The position numbers and the translations under genes are program-made. A stretch of DNA of 36,824 nt from the IMG/VR virus record IMGVR_UViG_2585427781_000006. One strand, written 5' to 3'. A model generated the notes under the pieces. The model ran no database searches. It was given only the letters and a program-made list of their open reading frames with translations, and was not told the origin of the DNA. The number at the start of each line of letters is the position of its first letter. Position 1 is the stretch's first letter. Origin of the DNA: a virus. Taxonomy: Duplodnaviria; Heunggongvirae; Uroviricota; Caudoviricetes. Shown here in pieces: positions 1,018-13,260 of this stretch.

Positions 1018-1203
1018 AAAAAATGCCCTCCAGTAGAGAGCATTTTTACTGTATGTATAACCAGTGTCAATGTATGAAATCCTGCGACCATACATCTCAC
1101 TGAAGCCATAATGAAGTTAGCTATTTTTTGCTATGTGAGTATGTGACTTTTGCGGTTAGCCTGCGGCTCATTGTTATATTAGGCGCAGGTATAAAAGCAA
1201 AAT

Positions 1204-3683: not shown

Positions 3684-3910
3684 TGGCTGATGCAATGGAT
3701 CTCGTACAGCAGCGCGTTGAAGAAGAACGCCAACGCCATATCCGTGCTGCCCGTGCCAAAACGCCGGGCGTGTCCCGCGTGCTTTGCGTTGAGTGTGAAG
3801 CGCCAATTCCGCCAGCACGCCGCCGTGCCATTCCTGGAGTGCAGCTTTGCATTACCTGCCAGGAAATCGCAGAGCTGAAAGGCAAACATTACAACGGAGG
3901 TGCTGTATGA
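3683..3910 (+). CDS. TraR/DksA-family C4 zinc-finger protein
   Basis: 75 aa with CxxC ... CxxC (CVECEAP ... CITCQEI), typical of phage TraR-like proteins. Stop overlaps the dam start (ATGA at 3907..3910). Confidence 0.7.
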   Translation: MADAMDLVQQRVEEERQRHIRAARAKTPGVSRVLCVECEAPIPPARRRAIPGVQLCITCQEIAELKGKHYNGGAV

Positions 3911-4764
3911 GCACCATCCTGAAATGGGCGGGTAATAAAACCGCCATTATGTCCGAACTGAAAAAATACCTTCCTGCTGGCCCGCGACTGGTTGAACCTT
4001 TCGCGGGTTCTTGTGCTGTGATGATGGCGACGGATTACCCCAGCTATCTGGTTGCGGATATTAATCCTGATTTAATCAACCTCTATAAAAAGATTGCCGC
4101 TGATTGCGAAGCGTTTATATCTCGTGCCAAAGTTTTATTTGAGGAAGCAAACAGTGAGCTGGCTTATTACAACATAAGACAGGAGTTTAATTACTCAACT
4201 GAAATTACTGATTTCATGAAGGCGATATATTTCCTGTATCTCAATCGTCACGGTTACCGTGGTTTATGTCGCTATAACAAGAGCGGGTATTTCAACATTC
4301 CCTACGGTAATTATAAAAATCCGTATTTCCCTGAAAAAGAAATTCGCGCATTTGCAGAGAAAGCCCAGCGGGCAACGTTTATCTGCGCGAGCTTTGATGA
4401 AACGCTGGCGATGCTGCAGGTGGGGGATGTGGTGTATTGCGATCCGCCGTATGACGGTACGTTTTCCGGCTATCACACTGATGGTTTCACTGAAGATGAC
4501 CAGTATCACCTGGCATCCATTCTTGAACATCGGTCATCAGAAGGACATCCGGTCATTGTTTCTAACAATGACACATCCCTGATTCGTTCGCTGTATCGCA
4601 ATTTTACTCACCACTATATCAAGGCAAAACGCAGCATCGGCGTGTCAGCTGGCGAGGGTAAATCTGCAACAGAAATCATTGCTGTTTCCGGGCCGAGCTG
4701 CTGGTTGGGATTTGATCCTTCGCGTGGCGTGGATAGTTCTGCCGTGTACGGAGTGTGTGTATGA
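3907..4764 (+). CDS. dam: DNA adenine methyltransferase (Dam-like, GATC-specific family)
   Basis: LKWAGNKT (AdoMet-binding region) and DPPY catalytic motif ([12 protein letters not shown]); overall collinear with E. coli Dam as recalled. Stop overlaps the gpA start. Confidence 0.88.
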
Positions 4765-7175
4765 GTCATGACGATATGAACAATTGCAGCGGCTTTAACG
4801 AGGCCGCCGCAGCATTTTCATGGAACGGCTCGAAAAAGGCCATTAACCCTTATCTGGACCCGGCGGAAGTTGCGCCGGAGTCTGCACTTTCAAACCTGAT
4901 CACTCTGTACGCTGCCGATAACGAGCAGGAACAACTGCGCCGCGAGGCACTGAGTGAGCAGGTCTGGGAGCGTTATTTCTTTAATGAATCCCGTGATCCT
5001 GTCCAGCGCGAAATGGAGCAGGATAAGCTCATTAGCCGGGCAAAGCTGGCGCATGAGCAGCAGCGTTTTAATCCGGACATGGTCATTCTGGCGGACGTAA
5101 ACGCCCAGCCTTCCCATATCAGCAAGCCGCTGATGCAACGTATTGAATACTTCAGCAGCCTGGGCAGGCCAAAGGCTTATTCCCGCTATTTGCGTGAGAC
5201 GATTAAGCCATGTCTGGAGCGACTGGATTGTGTACGTGACAGTCAGCTATCTGTTTCTTTCCGTTTTATGGCAAGCCATCAAGGGCTGGAGGGTCTGCTG
5301 ATCCTGCCTGAAATGAGCCAGGATCAGGTGAAACGCCTGTCCACCCTGGTAGCAGCGCATATGAGCATGTGTCTTGAGGACGCTTGTGGTGATTTGTATG
5401 CCACCGATGACGTTAAGCCAGAAGAAATCCGCAAGACATGGGAAAAGGTGGCAGCGGAAACCCTGCGTCTGGATGTTATCCCGCCTGCGTTTGAGAAACT
5501 TCGTCGGAAAAGAAACCGCCGCAAACCAGTGCCCTATGAACTCATCCCGGGTTCGCTGGCGCGTATGTTGTGTGCCGACTGGTGGTATCGGAAATTATGG
5601 AAGATGCGTTGCGAATGGCGGGGAGAGCAGTTGCGTGCTGTCTGCCTGGTCAGCAAAAAAGCATCCCCCTATGTCAGCTATGAAGCCGTGATGCATAAAC
5701 GTGAGCAGCGCCGTAAGTCGTTGGAGTTTTTTCGTTCTCATGAACTGGTGAACGAAGACGGCGACACGCTGGATATGGAAGATGTGGTAAACGCCAGCAG
5801 CAGCAACCCGGCGCATCGCCGCAATGAGATGATGGCCTGTGTTAAAGGTCTGGAGCTTATCGCGGAAATGCGCAGTGACTGTGCCGTTTTCTACACTATC
5901 ACCTGTCCGTCGCGTTTCCATTCCACGCTCAATAACGGCAGACCAAACCCGACCTGGACAAACGCGACGGTAAGACAAAGTAGCGATTATCTGGTCGGCA
6001 TGTTTGCTGCATTTCGTAAGGCTATGCATAAAGCCGAGTTGCGCTGGTATGGCGTGCGGGTAGCTGAGCCGCATCATGACGGTACTGTGCACTGGCATCT
6101 CATGTGTTTCATGCGTAAAAAAGACCGCCGCGCCATCACTGCATTACTGCGTAAGTTTGCCATCCGTGAAGACCGCGAGGAGCTGGGCAATAACACGGGA
6201 CCACGCTTTAAGTCTGAGCTGATAAACCCGCGCAAAGGTACGCCAACAAGCTATATCGCGAAATACATCAGTAAGAACATTGACGGGCGTGGTCTGGCTG
6301 GGGAGATCAGCAAGGAAACGGGTAAATCCCTGCGTGATAACGCTGAATACGTTAATGCCTGGGCGTCTCTGCATCGTGTTCAGCAATTCCGCTTCTTTGG
6401 CATTCCGGGGCGTCAGGCTTACCGTGAACTGCGATTGCTGGCTGGTCAGGCGGCAAGGCAACAGGGTGACAAAAAAGCAGGTGCGCCGGTACTGGATAAC
6501 CCGCGCCTTGATGCCATTCTGGCTGCTGCTGATGCTGGTTGTTTTGCCACCTATATCATGAAGCAGGGTGGCGTACTGGTTCCCCGTAAATATCACCTCA
6601 TCAGAACCGCTTATGAAATCAACGAAGAGCCAACCGCTTATGGCGATCACGGTATTCGTATTTATGGCATCTGGTCACCCATTGCAGAGGGCAAGATCTG
6701 CACTCATGCGGTGAAGTGGAAAATGGTTCGTAAGGCCGTTGACGTTCAGGAGGCGGCTGCCGACCAGGGCGCTTGCGCCCCTTGGACTCGTGGCAATAAC
6801 TGTCCCCTTGCTGAAAATTTGTACCAACAAGGGAAAGACAAATCAGCTGATGGGGATACCAGAACGGACATTACCCGCATGGATGACAAGGAGTTGCACG
6901 ATTACCTGCACAGTATGAGCAAAAAAGAGCGCCGGGACCTGGCAGCAAGGTTACGCCTGGTTAAACCGAAACGGCGTAAAGACTACAAACAGCGAATTAC
7001 ATACCATCAGCGACTGCAGCTCGTCTATGAGCTGAAGTCCAGAGGATTTGATGGTAGCGAGAAAGAGGTCGATTTACTCCTTCGCGGCGGCAGTATTCCG
7101 TCAGGAGCAGGCTTGCGTATCTTCTATCGGAACCAGCGTTTGTGGGAAGATGATAAGTGGCGGAACCTGTATTAA
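4761..7175 (+). CDS. A: Replication initiation endonuclease gpA (rolling-circle initiator)
   Basis: About 805 aa, following the early genes as in P2/186 gene A. Start at ATG 4761 overlaps the dam stop (ATGA). Confidence 0.88.
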
Positions 7176-7269
7176 TTACGCGGATTAACAATTCGTGCTC
7201 TTAATAATACCAGGCATATCAGGCTGATGAACGTAAAAAAACGTTTTACATCAGTAAGATTATTATATA

Positions 7270-7285
7270 CTGTAAATATAAACAG
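7270..7285. promoter_or_regulatory. LexA (SOS) box CTGT-N8-ACAG overlapping a promoter
   Basis: Perfect CTGTaaatataaACAG at 7270..7285 (20-mer TACTGTAAATATAAACAGTG 7268..7287), followed by a TACAGT -10-like hexamer at 7296..7301, upstream of the tum/dinI-like genes. Confidence 0.6.
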
Positions 7286-7328
7286 TGGTTATGCATACAG
7301 TATTGCTTGTGGTGTCATAGGAGGAAAG

Positions 7329-7517
7329 ATGCAGGACTATTTTTTGGAGTCTTTGAAGCTCCAGCGCATTGATTTTTTTCTTAAGCTTGTAGCGGCTAGT
7401 GAGTGTAGTGATGAAGAGAAGGGGCTGGCTCTGCAGTGGGTTTCTGAATTGACTGATGAACTCATGGCAAAGATCAGAACCCACGAATACAACCGCTCAA
7501 TGGATGTCATCAGTTGA
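7329..7517 (+). CDS. Small protein of the SOS-controlled module (Tum N-terminal-like position)
   Basis: 62 aa from ATG 7329 with AGGAGG RBS 4 nt upstream, downstream of the LexA box. Confidence 0.5.
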   Translation: MQDYFLESLKLQRIDFFLKLVAASECSDEEKGLALQWVSELTDELMAKIRTHEYNRSMDVIS

Positions 7518-7527
7518 GGTGACTTTT

Positions 7528-7761
7528 ATGCGCATTGAAATAATGATCGATAAAGAGCAGAAGATTAGCCAGTCTACCCTGGACGCCCTTGAATCCGAGC
7601 TTTACCGCAATCTGCGCCCCCTGTATCCAAAAACGGTAATTCGTATCCGTAAAGGTAGCTCTAACGGTGTGGAACTGACCGGACTGCAACTGGATGAAGA
7701 AAGAAAACAAGTGATGAAAATTATGCAGAAGGTGTGGGAAGACGACAGCTGGCTGCATTAA
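7528..7761 (+). CDS. DinI-family protein (Tum antirepressor C-terminal-like)
   Basis: 77 aa from ATG 7528 (MRIEIMIDKEQ ... VWEDDSWL), collinear with DinI as recalled. GAGGTGA RBS upstream. Confidence 0.8.
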   Translation: MRIEIMIDKEQKISQSTLDALESELYRNLRPLYPKTVIRIRKGSSNGVELTGLQLDEERKQVMKIMQKVWEDDSWLH

Positions 7762-7770
7762 GAAACGTTG

Positions 7771-7798
7771 CCCCCAAGAGGATTTATCCTGTTGGGGG
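7771..7798 (+). terminator. Hairpin downstream of the dinI-like gene (possible terminator)
   Basis: cccccaagaggat-tt-atcctgttggggg forms a long stem-loop. No clear U-tract. Confidence 0.35.
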
Positions 7799-8249
7799 GA
7801 GTTTGGGCAACGAGTGAAATGAGGTGTAAGGTGGGCGGTCATTTTGATAAGTGATCGTCCACTTTGTGTCAGAACCTGATGTTTGTTGTACATTCGGACG
7901 AATAGGCGGCGTTGTTTGCTTTAAAAATAAAACAGGAACACTTTGAGAAAGTGAACAGGTGTATTTATTTGTTGCTGATGAATGAGAGTAACTCTAATTT
8001 GGATAATTAGCTTGATAATAGGTCAGACGAAAATAATATTCCAGCACACTTTTGGTCGCAACAGGCATTAGTTAATTTTAAGTGATAAATTTTTATCCAT
8101 AAATTAACACTAGTGTGTCATCTAGCGAAACCGAATCGCTTTAACTCATAACTTGAAGTTGAATCAGTGGGGTAGCAGTAGGCATGCCGGAACTGATAAA
8201 CTGTGCAGAAGGCTAAACATTCATTCACTCGTGAGATAGTAGCTAAATT

Positions 8250-9116
8250 ATGCAAAGAATTATTCCTGATAAAAATTGGTGGGAAAAAGAGCGTATTAAT
8301 CGTAAAGCATCATCAATATGCCCATATGCTAGTTCATACAGATGTCCTCGATACTATCAGAGTGTAGTTTTGCTCTCAAGCATCAATGTGATAGCTGGTA
8401 TGGCAACTAGGAAAGAAAAAGAGTTGGGCGAATTTTGGGAAAGAACCACTTTCTCATCTTTATGTGATGAAGAAGTCCCTACAGTTACTACAAAAGAATA
8501 TGGCGGCCTTGCATCAGTTAGTAATTTTTGCCCAGAAATATCATTTAGATATTTACACTACTACGCCGATTATATGTGTAAATATGTTGATGAGATAGAT
8601 CAGGACACTGGCAGGCGTATTGCGGAAAAAGATAATTTAGAAAATGATTGGAAATATACATGGATGTCAGTCAATCCTAAATTTTATTTAGATTGCGATG
8701 TTTTTGAAACTGTCAAAAATTTCAATGAAGAATTGGCTAGTGATTACTTAAAAAGATTGCACCCAAATATCGTTCAGCAAATAGATAGAATGAATAATTG
8801 CTTGGATAATAATGATCCGGCAGGTGCACTGCACGCAGCCTCTAATATTTTAGAAACTATGGCTAAGGAAATCACTCAAAACCCGAATGTGGCAAATGAG
8901 TCATTGGGTGGTTTTTTTAAACAGTTCGAAAAAATGTCAAAATTACCTAAGAATCTTATTGATGCTGTTAAAGATATTTATGATTTACGCAACAAATTAC
9001 CTACTGCTGGACACGGAAGCTTGAACAAGCCTGAATTGACTATGGTAGAAGCTATAACTATTGCGGCAATGACAAAGGCGATTTTAGAAATTGAATATCG
9101 AAGCAAAGCCATCTAA
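8250..9116 (+). CDS. Hypothetical accessory protein (AT-rich cargo gene)
   Basis: 288 aa ORF in a strongly AT-rich island. N-terminal Cys pairs (CPYASSYRCPRY). No catalytic motif recognised with confidence. Confidence 0.6.
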   Translation: MQRIIPDKNWWEKERINRKASSICPYASSYRCPRYYQSVVLLSSINVIAGMATRKEKELGEFWERTTFSSLCDEEVPTVTTKEYGGLASVSNFCPEISFRYLHYYADYMCKYVDEIDQDTGRRIAEKDNLENDWKYTWMSVNPKFYLDCDVFETVKNFNEELASDYLKRLHPNIVQQIDRMNNCLDNNDPAGALHAASNILETMAKEITQNPNVANESLGGFFKQFEKMSKLPKNLIDAVKDIYDLRNKLPTAGHGSLNKPELTMVEAITIAAMTKAILEIEYRSKAI

Positions 9117-9243
9117 CAAACCAAATTATGTGGTTCAAATTCCCGCTACACTTCTGTGTTGCCGCCAGCGTCTACTTATCGCTGTGAGTTCAACGGGTGA
9201 TGATGCGTTAGAGATCTCTGAATCGATTGAAGTCTAAGGTTGT

Positions 9244-9265
9244 CAGGGCTGTAACAGCAGCCCTG
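9244..9265. terminator. Perfect 8-bp hairpin between the convergent cargo genes
   Basis: cagggctg-taacag-cagccctg. No U-tract on either side. Confidence 0.3.
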
Positions 9266-9365
9266 TGTCATGAATGGATTGCATATTAATTGACGAAGAA
9301 CAGACTAATATCATCGATAGCTGTTTTCAAAAATAGACCAATAACAAACTGAGATGTTATCGTAT

Positions 9366-10019
9366 TCATTTCGATGATTGATCCAGATGTGTATATAACC
9401 ATTGAAAGAGTTTTCTAATTTTTGTGATAGTATCTTTTAAATAATTTAAGGAGATTATTATATTATTTTCATTGTTTAATGAAAGAGTAGGTGTTTTATC
9501 AATGATATTTTTTAAGGCTACAGCTGTGCTCATTTTTTTAATGTCTCCATTAGCATGAACTATGCAATTCCTTACTTTGTTAAACTCTGTCATGAATTGC
9601 CACTCTTGTGACAGGCCAAAGTTTATATCCATTAATTTTGTTAAATATCTTTTTGCTTTGTGGATGCCATCACCATTAAAATCGGTTACTGATATATTGG
9701 TGTTTACAATCCTTTGACATATATTGCAATAGTCGTTTAGGTTGTGCTCTAAGCATGAGTATAAAGATACCAAAGCAGATTTATTAAAAATATTTGGTTG
9801 TATGTTAACTAAGAAATCATATTGCTCTGAATAATAGTCTTCTAAGTAATTAATATAATCGTCAGGAGCATTCTTTTTTTCATCTTCATATGCTTTTTTT
9901 AATTCCGATAAGTCAACTCTGTTTTGGCCGCCTGCTCCTAGGATATATTTTTCGAAATCATCAATCTGCGCTTCAAGTGAATATCTTGATAGCTGTGCGA
10001 AAAGTTTGTATTTACTCAT
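9366..10019 (-). CDS. Hypothetical accessory protein with HEPN-like R-N-x3-H motif (candidate Abi-type RNase)
   Basis: 217 aa ORF in the AT-rich island. Motif KVRNCIVHANGD matches the canonical HEPN R-[N]-x3-H signature in spacing and context. Confidence 0.6.
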   Translation of the reverse strand: MSKYKLFAQLSRYSLEAQIDDFEKYILGAGGQNRVDLSELKKAYEDEKKNAPDDYINYLEDYYSEQYDFLVNIQPNIFNKSALVSLYSCLEHNLNDYCNICQRIVNTNISVTDFNGDGIHKAKRYLTKLMDINFGLSQEWQFMTEFNKVRNCIVHANGDIKKMSTAVALKNIIDKTPTLSLNNENNIIISLNYLKDTITKIRKLFQWLYTHLDQSSK

Positions 10020-10362
10020 CGGTATGCCATTCCTTTTTAATTATAAACCTTTGGGTTAAAAGGTGCTGAAAATAGTAACTCATTATTTTTGTTTGTAAAG
10101 GGGGTATTGTTTTTACTAGATCAAGATAAAACAATGGGAATATCCGCTTTTCGCTCACAGCGGACTTTCATCTTTGTAAACCCGTATGATTAGCTTTTCA
10201 GCGGTCATTCAGATACGGATTTACGCTTCCCTTGGCTGTGCATGACTATGACGCATGAGATCGCATGATCGTTAGAGGATCGTTTTTGCTGAGGCCAGCC
10301 AGAACTGGCGTGCTTTTGCTTATGTCGTGCAGGTGCATGAAAACCACTACATAAAGCGGGCA

Positions 10363-10381
10363 GGCGTGGCGGGGATACGAG
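10363..10381. other. Probable cos site (cohesive end region)
   Basis: GGCGTGGCGGGGA at 10363..10375 matches the first 13 nt of the 186 cohesive end as recalled (GGCGTGGCGGGGAAAGCAT; P2 GGCGAGGCGGGGAAAGCAC). Lies in a 500-bp non-coding GC-normal stretch. Confidence 0.45.
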
Positions 10382-10410
10382 CGCGCGCTAAGTCATATAA
10401 GAGTTATATA

Positions 10411-10439
10411 TTGATTTGATTGCTGGACATGCATACAGT
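10411..10439 (+). promoter_or_regulatory. Candidate promoter of the kinase/HIRAN operon (TTGATT-17-TACAGT) with degenerate LexA-like box
   Basis: -35 TTGATT 10411..10416, 17-nt spacer, -10 TACAGT 10434..10439. CTGG-N8-ACAG at 10423..10438 is one mismatch from the LexA box core. Shares the 13-mer ATGCATACAGTAT with the tum promoter region. Confidence 0.3.
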
Positions 10440-10533
10440 ATCGCTCTATCATCTAATAAATCTTAGAGTATTTGACAATGTTTGGATAAAATGGAACCTA
10501 ACTTATTCATAATCCGCTAAACAGGGATGTCAG

Positions 10534-11448
10534 ATGCCATACCAATTGGTAGAGCTTAGCCCCGTAGCTAACGATCTTGAACAGTTAGGAACCAAAGAGA
10601 AGTTTTGGTTCTATTTCTCCGATGACACTGTAAATTTGCAGTTGTTTAAGTACTCTAGGCCAGGTACTGGCGAGCATTGGTCTGAAAAGTGTGCTGCTGA
10701 GTTATGTCATTTGCTTAACATTCCACATGCTAGCTATGATTTGGCGCGATACAATGGTCGATTCGGTGTGGTGACTCAGAATATCATTCCATCTGGTTTC
10801 CGGATGGTAATGGGAAATGAAGTGCTTCACAGTTCGACATTCGATTATCCAGGGCCTTTACAAGCCGGGGAAAAGCCGGTAAGGGTCAGAGAACACACTG
10901 TCACAAGGGTATTGGGTTGTTTAGATAGGGAATCTATCAAGCCTCCTCCGAGTGTATATGATCTAACCGGGCTAAATGCAGCAGATGTATTTTGTGGATT
11001 TTTGATGCTCGATGCACTTGTGAGTAATCAAGATCGCCATCATGAAAATTGGGCGATCATGCTTAACAATGAAACTGGTGAGCAGTTTTTGTGTCCAACA
11101 TACGATCATGCCGCTAGTTTAGGAAGGGAGATGTTAGATGATGAGCGTAACGAACGGCTTAATACTAAAGATAAAAATCGACAAATCCCATGTTTTGTAA
11201 GAAAAGCTCGCTCTGAGCTATTCAAAGCAAAAACTGATAAAAAGCCCTTGCTGACCGTTGAAGCATTTCAACATGCAGTTGAAGGGAGAGTTGCCGCTCG
11301 CGACCATTGGTTAGGTAAGTTGAGCGTTTTAACAGAAGATTCCATTACAGATGTGTTTAACCAAGTGCCTTCATCGTGTATATCCGACAGTGCACGTAGA
11401 TTTGCAACGTTAATGGTAATGGAAAATCGCAGAAGGTTACTAGAATGA
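10534..11448 (+). CDS. HipA-family Ser/Thr kinase, short form (kinase core only)
   Basis: 304 aa. Gly-rich loop-like LGTKEKFWF near the N-terminus (compare HipA VAGAQEKT), catalytic loop SNQDRHHENWA (compare HipA TDGHAKNFS) and CPTYDHAAS (compare HipA TPFYDIIS). Lacks the HipA N-terminal domain. Confidence 0.7.
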   Translation: MPYQLVELSPVANDLEQLGTKEKFWFYFSDDTVNLQLFKYSRPGTGEHWSEKCAAELCHLLNIPHASYDLARYNGRFGVVTQNIIPSGFRMVMGNEVLHSSTFDYPGPLQAGEKPVRVREHTVTRVLGCLDRESIKPPPSVYDLTGLNAADVFCGFLMLDALVSNQDRHHENWAIMLNNETGEQFLCPTYDHAASLGREMLDDERNERLNTKDKNRQIPCFVRKARSELFKAKTDKKPLLTVEAFQHAVEGRVAARDHWLGKLSVLTEDSITDVFNQVPSSCISDSARRFATLMVMENRRRLLE

Positions 11449-12185
11449 CTAATACAAACTCCGTTTACGTCGCATGGCAGGCACCAGATACCAGAGACTG
11501 GCATGTTGTTGGTAACTTGCAAGAGCGCAAATCGGGGTATGTTTTCAGGTATACCAAAGGTGCTCTTAAATCTACTAAATTTACAAAGTTTAGCGGCATG
11601 AGTGATGTTCGTGAAACTTATGTTTCGGAAGAATTGTTTCCTCTTTTTAAAAATCGCCTTTTATCACCGAGACGTCCAGAGTATCCGAGTTTCATTAAAT
11701 GGCTTGGATTTGAAGAAGATAAGGTAAATCCTATCGATATTCTTGCTCGCTCGGGAGGCTTACGAAGCACTGATCAGCTGCAGATTTTCAAAAAAATTGA
11801 TGTTGATTCTGATGGTAACTTTGAGCATTTTTTCTTCTTACATGGACTTGGTTACTTAAATAGCTTAGCTAATGCTCGTGTATCTGAATTGAAACCGGGG
11901 CAAATTTTGCGTCTTTGCTTGGATCTTCAAAATGAATACGATGGGGATGCTGTTGTCGTTCGTGCAGATAAACCAGCTGAAATCGTTGGTTACTGCCCTA
12001 GGTATTTAAGTAATGATATCAAGAAGATGTTATTGGATGATCCAAAATCAATCACTTTAACGGTCGAAAAGATTAGCGATGATGCTCCTCATAACTATCG
12101 GTTATTATGTAAATTATCAGGAGTACTAAGCCAAGCCTGTCAATCGACGCTGATTCCTCAGGATGAGTTTGAACCTATTGAGTAA
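11445..12185 (+). CDS. HIRAN-domain protein with HipA-N-terminal-like (HipS-like) region
   Basis: 246 aa, start overlapping the kinase stop (ATGA). C-terminal LRLCLDLQNEYDGDAVVVRADKPAEIVGYCPRYLSNDIKKMLLD fits the HIRAN signature. N-terminal half shows the pattern of the HipA N-domain (LFKNRLLSPRRP ... PIDILARSGG versus HipA FFDNLLPDSP ... PFDLLSEIGRD). Confidence 0.6.
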   Translation: MTNTNSVYVAWQAPDTRDWHVVGNLQERKSGYVFRYTKGALKSTKFTKFSGMSDVRETYVSEELFPLFKNRLLSPRRPEYPSFIKWLGFEEDKVNPIDILARSGGLRSTDQLQIFKKIDVDSDGNFEHFFFLHGLGYLNSLANARVSELKPGQILRLCLDLQNEYDGDAVVVRADKPAEIVGYCPRYLSNDIKKMLLDDPKSITLTVEKISDDAPHNYRLLCKLSGVLSQACQSTLIPQDEFEPIE

Positions 12186-12191
12186 ATGAAG

Positions 12192-12215
12192 AAAAGCCAC
12201 CAAACGGTGGCTTTT
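12192..12215. terminator. Bidirectional intrinsic terminator between the HIRAN gene and the portal gene
   Basis: Perfect 10-bp stem aaaagccacc-aaac-ggtggctttt with T-rich flank; A/T runs on both strands. Confidence 0.6.
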
Positions 12216-12219
12216 CTTA

Positions 12220-13260
12220 TTATGGGACTATATCTAGCGAGTAGGTATTAAACTGTATCGCCTCCTTGCCAAGCCAATCATTCATCTCCTGTAATCGCTT
12301 TTGTAGTGGCATTAGCTCATTTCGGACGAATACACGGCTGGCCTTCTCCACATCCCCAAACCCCCCGACATTATTAGGCATTATCCCCATCATTTGTGGC
12401 GGCACACGATGCGCCGCCATCATGTCGTCCCGGCTCACGTTCTTGATATTCAGGAACTCATCCTTCGCCGCCACTTCTGACAACGGGATAATCTGAAGCC
12501 CGTCCTTTTTACCGTTAGGCGAGTACATAAACAGGTTACGGAAGTTACCAGGACCTTTGGCGCTTTTCATCGCATTGCGGAGGTTGTTCACATCCTCCTG
12601 GTTCTGCGCTGCATCGGTCATGTACATGATGAAGCCTGCATGACTGCCGTTAATGTAATACTTGCGGCGGAACAGCGTGGCGGACTCGTTGAGCAGAGCT
12701 GACGGAATGGCAGAAAGATAACCAGGCAGGCCGTAGATCTCCTGGTTGATGTCCGGTTCCATCAGATGAAAAATGTTGCCTTTCGTGAACTGATACGGCT
12801 GCGTAGTCATGCCGTATTGCACAAACCAGTAGGTATCAAGGTCTAACCCGCGTCGGGTGTATTTTGCCAGTGCAGGCTCAAGGGCGATAACTTCACCGAA
12901 GCGGTTCGTGCGTTTCTCCAGGTAGGCGTTACCAAAAACCAGATAGTCCTGTACAAAACGCGAAAAAGCCTGCTGGCTGAGCAGCGGGTGAGGGATGTAG
13001 GTGCTGGTCAGAATGTTGCACTTCACTGCAATCGGTGAGCTGTGATGCACGGCGGCGCGGAAGGTTCGCGCCAGTCCGTCGAAACTCACAGGCGGCTCGT
13101 ACCAACGATCCATCTGTACGCATTCCACATAGTCCAGCAGTTCGCGGCGGTCCAGAACAGGAACGGGATCACCGAAGCTGAATGCTTCGGCTGAAGTCTG
13201 GCTTTTATGCTGGATCTGTTTCGTCGACGCAGCGCGGTTCTTCTTACTCTTTCCCATCAA
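12220..13260 (-). CDS. Q: Portal protein gpQ
   Basis: 346 aa, size and position as in P2 Q (adjacent to the large terminase gene, divergent from the capsid operon). Confidence 0.88.
   Translation of the reverse strand: MMGKSKKNRAASTKQIQHKSQTSAEAFSFGDPVPVLDRRELLDYVECVQMDRWYEPPVSFDGLARTFRAAVHHSSPIAVKCNILTSTYIPHPLLSQQAFSRFVQDYLVFGNAYLEKRTNRFGEVIALEPALAKYTRRGLDLDTYWFVQYGMTTQPYQFTKGNIFHLMEPDINQEIYGLPGYLSAIPSALLNESATLFRRKYYINGSHAGFIMYMTDAAQNQEDVNNLRNAMKSAKGPGNFRNLFMYSPNGKKDGLQIIPLSEVAAKDEFLNIKNVSRDDMMAAHRVPPQMMGIMPNNVGGFGDVEKASRVFVRNELMPLQKRLQEMNDWLGKEAIQFNTYSLDIVP

Follow-up and report, generated by a model that had tools for sequence, protein, structure and literature searches.

A predicted LexA operator accompanies a hipIN-like kinase/HIRAN cassette in a Fels-2/186-like Escherichia coli prophage

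Introduction

The viral sequence IMGVR_UViG_2585427781_000006, whose whole stretch of 36,824 nucleotides (nt) is referred to here as the window, is a Fels-2/186-like (Peduoviridae) prophage of Escherichia coli. Beyond its cos site it carries a cassette of two genes, one encoding a HipA-like small Ser/Thr kinase and the other a protein that combines a HipS-like part with a HIRAN domain. The region in front of the kinase gene contains a 13-mer, ATGCATACAGTAT, which is found exactly twice in the window, both times on the plus strand: at 10429-10441, and at 7291-7303 upstream of an operon made up of orf62 and a DinI-like gene. The original prediction regarded this repeat as a promoter core common to the LexA-controlled tum promoter of the prophage and the kinase operon, which might share the SOS regulation of the former or have captured its core. 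We find that in both places the 13-mer is the right half of a predicted E. coli-type LexA operator. In our judgement it is quite probable that the two operators serve two separate SOS-controlled transcription units of the prophage, and that the box in front of the kinase gene is an integral part of a mobile cassette. The features of the locus are compiled in Table 1.

Results and discussion

A hipIN-like operon with a predicted LexA box of its own

The two cassette genes form an operon in which the start of the HipS-HIRAN gene overlaps the kinase stop codon. This operon is hipIN-like and represents the PADLOC candidate system PDC-M03. In hipIN, a HipI kinase is accompanied by HipN, a HipS-HIRAN protein and putative antitoxin (Gerdes et al. 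2021, PMC8262856); the cassette of the window has this type of architecture. Its kinase, a small HipA homologue without the N-terminal subdomain of HipA, fits the description of the hipIN kinases. It was recognized by the PADLOC profile PDC-M03A (E 1.4e-121) and, weakly, by Pfam HipA_C (E 3.8e-4), and a catalytic-loop-like motif, DRHHEN, is invariant in the kinase alignment. Direct sequence searches of the PDB returned nothing significant for either protein, and a profile search with the kinase found CtkA alone (E 0.005), so that a comparison of folds was needed. The AlphaFold model of the kinase (predicted local distance difference test score, pLDDT, 83.7) proved closest to CtkA (E 4e-10, template modelling score 0.65-0.73) and to HipA. 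The partner protein matched PDC-M03B (E 3.4e-93) and, with residues 127-228, the Pfam HIRAN domain (E 1.1e-13). A Foldseek search with its model (pLDDT 89.7) yielded the HIRAN domain of HLTF (E 3e-5) and, for the other half of the protein, the HipS chains of HipBST 7ab3 (E 2.6e-3 and 7.9e-3).

Both strands of the window, about 73,600 positions in all, were scanned for LexA sites with a heterology-index (HI)-like matrix derived from 26 E. coli LexA boxes, the scores of which are not equal to published HI values. Only four sites scored below 10.5, and the next best, an unrelated site, reached 12.6; on the same matrix, the recA and ruvAB operators score 4.3 and 7.05, respectively. Both copies of the 13-mer sit inside sites of this top four, each as the right half. 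The kinase-operon box, TGCTGGACATGCATACAGTA, ranks third, and the site that holds the other copy ranks fourth. The 13-mer itself is made up of four spacer bases (ATGC), then the consensus half-site ATACAGTA, then a T, and shares 11 of its 13 bases with the K-12 recA operator, TACTGTATGAGCATACAGTAtaat; the right half of the kinase-operon box, GCATACAGTAT, is identical to that of the recA operator. Like E. coli SOS boxes, the sequence at 10421-10440 forms a palindrome of 20 nt of the TACTGT-N8-ACAGTA type, matching TACTGTATATATATACAGTA, with CTG and CAG 10 nt apart. Such boxes overlap a sigma-70 promoter; the one described here overlaps a promoter candidate (P1, see below). Its 16-nt core (CTGG-N8-ACAG, 10423-10438) is present as originally described and differs from the core of the K-12 sulA operator, TACTGTACATCCATACAGTA, at 2 of 16 positions. 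In contrast to the recA and sulA boxes, it has a CTGG left half, and its predicted affinity is intermediate.

The kinase-operon box lies 39 bp after cos and 113 nt before the kinase ATG, and this arrangement was compared across homologous loci gathered with a kinase profile, 80 of them from species-representative genomes and 58 from viral contigs. A LexA box stands 99-136 nt before the ATG in all 51 tested loci whose kinase is 61-100% identical to that of the window (L092, which has no upstream sequence, was left out of this count), and every one of these boxes scores 8.3 or lower. The 51 loci comprise 35 distinct upstream sequences, 26 distinct box 20-mers and 16 distinct spacers. Fifteen of the 26 boxes have the core CTGG...ACAG, ten have CTGT...ACAG and one has CTGG...CCAG. 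When the sequences are aligned on the box, CTG and CAG are the sole invariant columns and the A before CAG is nearly invariant, while the flanks decay to noise; distant variants such as TACTGTATATAAATACAGGC and GACTGTATATAAATACAGTT come near the full LexA consensus. Among the homologues of at most 59% identity (10 viral and 20 species-representative loci, those scanned being almost all gammaproteobacterial), the 300-350 nt upstream contain no comparable site; the best scores there are 13.4 or higher. The loci of these homologues also supplied the background, with 5 sites scoring 8.3 or lower in 186 kb, or about 0.001 per 46-nt interval. The proposal that the kinase operon is under SOS control is supported in silico by the rank of its box in the window, by the presence of a box in 51 of 51 loci and by the invariance of CTG and CAG, and a predicted LexA operator belonging to the kinase/HIRAN operon itself is well supported.

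As a repeat, the 13-mer is unremarkable, and it is its content that merits attention. Its two positions and the match of 18 of 20 positions with flanking bases were both reproduced, and the match can be lengthened to 19 of 22 as TGG..ATGCATACAGTAT.GCT. The chance of about 1 in 1000 that had been attached to it does not hold up, since the window contains 36 direct exact repeats of at least 13 nt, against 10.2 +/- 3.4 in dinucleotide-preserving shuffles. Direct pairs that match at 18 or more of 20 positions number 5, compared with 2-3 in Markov-1 random sequences. In a local alignment limited to the two intergenic regions, a restriction made post hoc, the score was reached by 1 of 500 shuffles; the alignment ends at 17 nt (one mismatch), or at 22 nt with flanks. 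The exact 13-mer is found at the kinase site in 18 of the 51 loci, nearly all of them near-identical relatives, and at the tum site in 3 of 21 sequence variants. The about 3.5-fold excess of exact direct repeats over the shuffles is made up mostly of G+C-rich sequences such as CTGGCGATGCTGC and GCGGCGGCGCTGGG; they apparently fall in coding sequence of the window's late half and look like effects of codon usage or composition, not like elements.

Candidate promoters of the kinase operon

The best sigma-70-like match between positions 7150 and 12300 is the candidate promoter P1 (10 of 12 positions), whose -35 hexamer and most of whose spacer are spanned by the LexA box. It is the CTGG-ACA variant of the box that yields the hexamer TGGACA, a match to the -35 consensus at 5 of 6 positions. 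A hexamer of the form TAnnnT follows the box at a distance of exactly 6 nt (+7 to +12) in 30 of the 35 distinct upstream sequences, where it reads TATCAT, TATTGT, TAATAT, TATAAT or TAAAGT, among other forms. This fixed spacing supports P1 as a predicted promoter with its -35 inside the left half of the box. The promoter proposed originally, TTGATT-17-TACAGT, may be possible in this lineage; its TTGATT is kept in close relatives alone, however, and it is less supported than TGGACA-17-TATCAT.

A second candidate, P2, lies downstream of the box and for this reason is probably independent of LexA. Its -35-like hexamer is weak in the window; in distant relatives the candidate reads TTGGGA-17-TAAAAT. 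The TAnnAT element at 10487-10492 is kept in 37 of 38 aligned upstream sequences (the exception is L014). P2 may possibly represent a second, LexA-independent promoter for basal expression. Transcripts would be expected to begin near 10459 if made from P1 and near 10499 if made from P2. A structured leader RNA or riboswitch was considered and rejected: RNAalifold gave no pairs on 14 diverse leaders, and no conserved leader RNA structure was found. An Rfam search gave no match at the kinase site or at the site upstream of orf62.

Predicted dual SOS boxes upstream of the orf62/DinI-like operon

The other copy of the 13-mer belongs to a double site. Box 1 contains the perfect CTGT-N8-ACAG (7270-7285) that had been pointed out in the original prediction, and box 2, which includes the 13-mer, overlaps it by 5 nt in a 15-bp register. 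In the annotated p95 promoter of phage 186, the -10 hexamer TACTGT coincides with the first 6 nt of the 186 LexA box, and by analogy TTTACA-17-TACTGT is the probable promoter of the orf62/DinI-like operon, with a start at about 7280. With the promoter placed in this way, the first copy of the 13-mer would fall in the early transcribed leader, and the second lies in the spacer between the -35 and -10 hexamers of P1, the best promoter match. The view of the 13-mer as a promoter core is not upheld by either position.

Box 1 is kept in Fels-2, SopEPhi, Yersinia MLG42, Klebsiella phi4.1 and many IMG/VR loci. The dual layout, CTGT-N8-[A/C]CAGTGG-N8-ACAG, precedes orf62/DinI-like genes in 21 sequence variants, among them those of Fels-2, SopEPhi, a Yersinia phage and a Klebsiella Gegevirus; CAGTGG...ACAG occurs in 20 of these, and one reads CAGTGA. 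The 8-nt spacer of box 2 is free to vary and reads TTATGCAT, TTATACAT, TTATGTAT, TTATATAT, ATATATAT or TTATTTAT, among others.

A plasmid search with the 47-nt dual-box region returned small colicin-type plasmids. The sequence at 7268-7302, TACTGTAAATATAAACAGTGGTTATGCATACAGTA, has the form of a colicin-type dual operator, with overlapping boxes of which the second starts with CAGTGG, and it shares its architecture and a near-identical sequence with the operators of colicin N and cloacin, CTGTATATAAAACCAGTGGTTATGTGTACAGTATT. Operators of this type bind two LexA dimers, which results in tight repression (PMC2994835). They stand before bacteriocin genes in the colicin and cloacin systems, whereas the dual operator described here precedes an operon of a prophage.

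In its gene content and position the operon is related to the SOS operon of phage 186 (p95: tum-orf97), where a LexA-controlled promoter directly after gene A drives a DinI-related protein; p95 has a single LexA box, in contrast to the dual boxes of the window. The label of a tum promoter is apt in terms of position only. The DinI-like protein is 41% identical to residues 71-145 of 186 Tum (the C-terminal half; TumB-like), and no similarity was found between orf62 and the N-terminal (antirepressor) half of 186 Tum. A Pfam search with orf62 gave no match, and in relatives it is annotated as hypothetical. According to the 186 record, the p95 operon also has a cargo gene, orf97, whose expression blocks 186 infection, and this provides a precedent for SOS-controlled accessory genes in this region. 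Unlike the cargo of the 186 operon, the kinase cassette of the window has its own predicted box and promoter, beyond cos and a terminator-like hairpin (10294-10309).

The box moves with the cassette

The cassette is located between cos and the portal gene Q. The cos sequence, GGCGTGGCGGGGATACGAG, was assigned by alignment with the joined ends of phage 186, whose annotated cohesive end, GGCGTGGCGGGGAAAGCAT, aligns with it and whose flanks match too; the cassette therefore occupies the cos-adjacent gpA-gpQ region, which has been described as a defence hotspot of P2-like phages (Rousset et al. 2022, PMC9122126). Other cargo between cos and Q, in 813R9, KP12 and Fels-2, has no LexA box upstream. 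A LexA box as a general feature of the hotspot was accordingly rejected, and the predicted SOS control therefore belongs to this cassette and not to the hotspot.

In many of the loci the surroundings of the cassette are P2-like and include gpA, orf62, DinI, cos and Q. In other loci the cassette lies between lambdoid O/P-like replication genes and NinB (L117-L119), between a baseplate gene and an integrase (L126), in a tail module (L128), between an HNH endonuclease and a methyltransferase (L130), or after a DnaB-like helicase (L133). In all of these the spacing between box and kinase gene is unchanged, and P2-type gpA, orf62 and a DinI-like gene were not detected in such non-P2 contexts within about 4 kb. 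A nucleotide search of a phage collection with the cassette returned just a short Vibrio match, and the loci had to be retrieved by way of the protein. At 99.9% identity the cassette is also present in E. coli 89-3156 and SCU-106.

As a separate observation, a degenerate sequence resembling a P2-type cos, CAGACGTGACGGGGATACGAGTGCGC, still precedes the cassette in the lambdoid loci L117-L119 (about 60-110 nt ahead of the LexA box, at locus positions ~3780-3830). This apparent remnant suggests that the cassette took its cos flank along when it moved out of a P2-like phage.

Table 1. Positions of the genes, predicted regulatory sites and other features of the window
Feature	Position	Strand	Remarks
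int	about 4-1017	minus	
LexA-like site, int side	1047-1066		rank 1, HI-like score 3.7
CI-type repressor gene	1414-1986	minus	CII next in gene order
Replication gene A	4755-7175		
Probable SOS promoter of the orf62/DinI-like operon	7245-7273	plus	-35 TTTACA (7245-7250), 17-nt spacer, -10 TACTGT (7268-7273)
LexA box 1 of the orf62/DinI-like operon (predicted)	7268-7287		TACTGTAAATATAAACAGTG; rank 2, HI-like score 4.2
LexA box 2 of the orf62/DinI-like operon (predicted)	7283-7302		CAGTGGTTATGCATACAGTA; rank 4, HI-like score 9.6; contains first copy of the 13-mer
orf62	7329-7517	plus	open reading frame with ribosome-binding site GGAGG; first gene of the SOS operon
DinI-like gene	7528-7761	plus	Pfam DinI, E 6.6e-23
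2.4-kb insertion relative to close relatives	7772-10237		
150-bp block common to relatives	10238-10390		contains cos
P2/186-type cos cohesive-end sequence	10363-10381		by alignment with joined ends of phage 186
LexA box of the kinase operon (predicted)	10421-10440		rank 3, HI-like score 6.6; contains second copy of the 13-mer
Promoter candidate P1	10424-10452	plus	-35 TGGACA (10424-10429), 17-nt spacer, -10 TATCAT (10447-10452)
Promoter candidate P2	10463-10492	plus	TTAGAG (weak -35-like), 18-nt spacer, TAAAAT (10487-10492)
Two-gene kinase/HIRAN cassette	10534-12185		
HipA-like small Ser/Thr kinase gene	10534-11448	plus	304 aa; HipI-like; PADLOC PDC-M03A
HipS-like + HIRAN protein gene	11445-12185	plus	246 aa; HipN-like putative antitoxin/sensor; PADLOC PDC-M03B
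Portal gene Q and terminase gene P	downstream of cassette	minus	

Strength of the evidence and alternative explanations

Several points weigh against reading the two copies as operator halves of separate SOS-controlled units. All of the support is in silico, and of the operators behind the scanning matrix, recA and sulA were the ones checked against K-12. The 51 loci are related and not independent, so that fewer independent observations stand behind them than their count implies. With CTGG in place of CTGT, the left half-site is weaker, although CCAG or CTGG halves occur in the boxes of ruvAB, uvrB, dinI and uvrD. A TAnnnT hexamer at the fixed spacing is missing from 5 of the 35 upstream variants, and the most invariant upstream element besides the box is the downstream TAAAAT. 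Should transcription be driven mainly from this TAAAAT, the LexA dimer would have its centre about 60 bp ahead of the start, and repression might be slight.

This last point leads to the strongest of the alternatives, which we nevertheless consider unlikely: a real LexA site with little effect, in an operon with essentially constitutive expression, transcribed mainly from P2, which is what one would expect of a defence or toxin-antitoxin module of a lysogen. The near-invariance of TAnnAT, the form TTGGGA-17-TAAAAT that P2 has in distant relatives and the distance between the box and the P2 start would all agree with such an arrangement. If the box were without effect, it would be hard to explain why selection has retained it and, at a constant distance from it, a -10-like hexamer in 30 of 35 variants. 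Tandem constitutive and LexA-controlled promoters are, moreover, known, for example from uvrB.

That the palindrome belongs to another regulator and merely resembles a LexA box appears very unlikely to us. Toxin-antitoxin modules are usually autoregulated via palindromic operators, and the HipS-HIRAN protein, with its DNA-binding HIRAN domain, or else a phage repressor could be such a regulator; the absence of the box from homologues of at most 59% identity, though those scanned are almost all gammaproteobacterial, would fit as well. HIRAN domains, however, bind DNA ends and not palindromes (PMC8262856), and no helix-turn-helix domain was found in either protein by Pfam search or fold comparison. 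In addition, the distant variants fit the whole 20-nt LexA consensus and not just CTG and CAG, and the same motif recurs at two other SOS-type sites of the prophage.

Slightly less probable still is the capture of a promoter core, in which recombination within the prophage would have transferred part of the tum/DinI promoter to the cassette, making the two copies homologous by descent. The 19 of 22 match is between two intergenic regions of one prophage, where few shuffles reach its score, and both sites show the same four spacer states among relatives (GC, AC, GT and AT). Yet within individual prophages these states are uncorrelated between the tum site and the kinase site (GT/GC in L088, AC/GC in L091, GC/AC in L103), and the boxes of distant relatives have quite different spacers. 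Similarity stops at 17-22 nt, the 13-mer is not conserved as a unit at either site, and its position relative to the -10 and -35 hexamers differs between the two promoters. The box also accompanies the cassette in lambdoid and other prophages where the P2-type neighbours were not detected within about 4 kb. On the strength of the uncorrelated spacer states and of a similarity that does not reach past about 22 nt, we reject a shared or captured promoter core, and likewise a duplication of the promoter segment. Comparison of the variants indicates that the identity of the two sites over 13 positions is a coincidence, in that both LexA half-sites are in the GC state at two neutral spacer positions.

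Least probable of all is pure chance, with the 13-mer as one of many repeats and the second site as no functional operator, which would suit the excess of repeats and of 18-of-20 pairs in the window and the lack of conservation of the exact 13-mer at either site, but not the third-best LexA match in 36.8 kb against so low a background, nor a box that holds its position in 51 of 51 loci through 26 variants while its flanks become unalignable.

A possible mechanism and its significance

The comparison of the sites suggests that the prophage has three separate predicted LexA-controlled points, at int, at the orf62/DinI-like operon with its dual operator, and at the kinase cassette. The analysis shows the sequence of the kinase-operon box, its rank, its positional conservation, its overlap with a promoter-like element and its movement with the cassette; LexA binding and the use of P1 we infer, and on this basis the following course of events could be expected. 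In an undamaged lysogen, a LexA dimer on the kinase-operon box would cover the -35 hexamer and the spacer of P1 and lower the transcription of the operon, while the downstream TAAAAT would allow a LexA-independent basal expression. Upon DNA damage, RecA-stimulated self-cleavage of LexA would derepress P1, alongside the dual-box operon and the third box before int. The dual operator would sit over the -10 hexamer and the early transcribed region of the orf62/DinI-like (Tum-like) operon, and the single box with its CTGG half may allow a leakier and earlier expression than this dual operator.

LexA operators and SOS-controlled prophage genes are well known, and the mechanism as such is not new. 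New is a previously unreported predicted LexA-controlled unit, an uncharacterised module that is a candidate for a defence or toxin-antitoxin system. In classical hipBA, HipB acts as the autoregulator, whereas the hipIN-like cassette described here has a predicted LexA box. In this it resembles the SOS-regulated toxin-antitoxin loci of E. coli, such as tisB/istR, symE, hokE, dinQ and yafNO, where toxin-like modules are likewise under a LexA box; those loci are mostly type I or small and chromosomal, whereas we are dealing with a two-gene kinase/HIRAN cassette that moves between temperate phages. Its box also differs from those of the chromosomal SOS regulon in being part of a mobile prophage cassette.

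The PDC-M03/hipIN-like module occurs in many Enterobacterales prophages, and homologues of the kinase number about 600. Our literature search found no report on how this module is controlled, and no paper linking hipIN or PDC-M03 with LexA or SOS. A conserved SOS box would give the module a concrete and testable trigger, DNA damage, and would tie a DNA-end-binding domain to DNA-damage signalling. A cassette that brings its own regulation when it moves between phage types also bears on how defence hotspots are expressed, and on the cloning of such systems with their native promoter into recA+ or lexA+ hosts.

What purpose SOS induction would serve is a matter of speculation; it could be defence, competition during prophage induction, or a coupling to the sensing of DNA ends by HIRAN. 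Tentatively, the self-contained mobile combination of LexA box, kinase and HipS-HIRAN protein might act as an SOS-licensed module for the sensing of DNA ends, a possibility to which we give only limited credence: cleavage of LexA would raise the level of the module, HIRAN would sense free 3' DNA ends that arise from damage, prophage induction or incoming phage, and the kinase would then be released. Abortive infection could result, or the carrier prophage could, during induction, gain an edge over phages that are co-resident or superinfecting. A HipA-family module would in that case be wired directly to the DNA-damage response of the host, and not to a HipB-type autorepressor.

Other features of the prophage

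The segment 7772-10237, an insertion relative to 813R9 and KP12, is a second block of cargo, located between gpA and cos. It includes an open reading frame at 8250-9116 (plus strand) with a weak Abi_C match and another at 9366-10019 (minus strand) with a weak HEPN-like PADLOC match. The only hit of the Rfam search, to BSnc120, is at 12171-12249 (minus strand), between the HIRAN gene and the end of the portal gene Q; at 32 bits (E 9e-5) it falls short of the gathering score of 114 and is probably due to chance or to a terminator region.

The third LexA box of the prophage, TACTGTATGTATAACCAGTG at 1047-1066, precedes the likely int start (ATG at 1017) by about 30 nt on the minus strand, and a hairpin with a T-run stands between the two. 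Klebsiella phage KP12 (AACTGTATATACAACCAGTA) and Escherichia phage 813R9 (AACTGTATATGTAACCAGTA) retain the box but differ in its spacer, and this conservation suggests SOS control near int.

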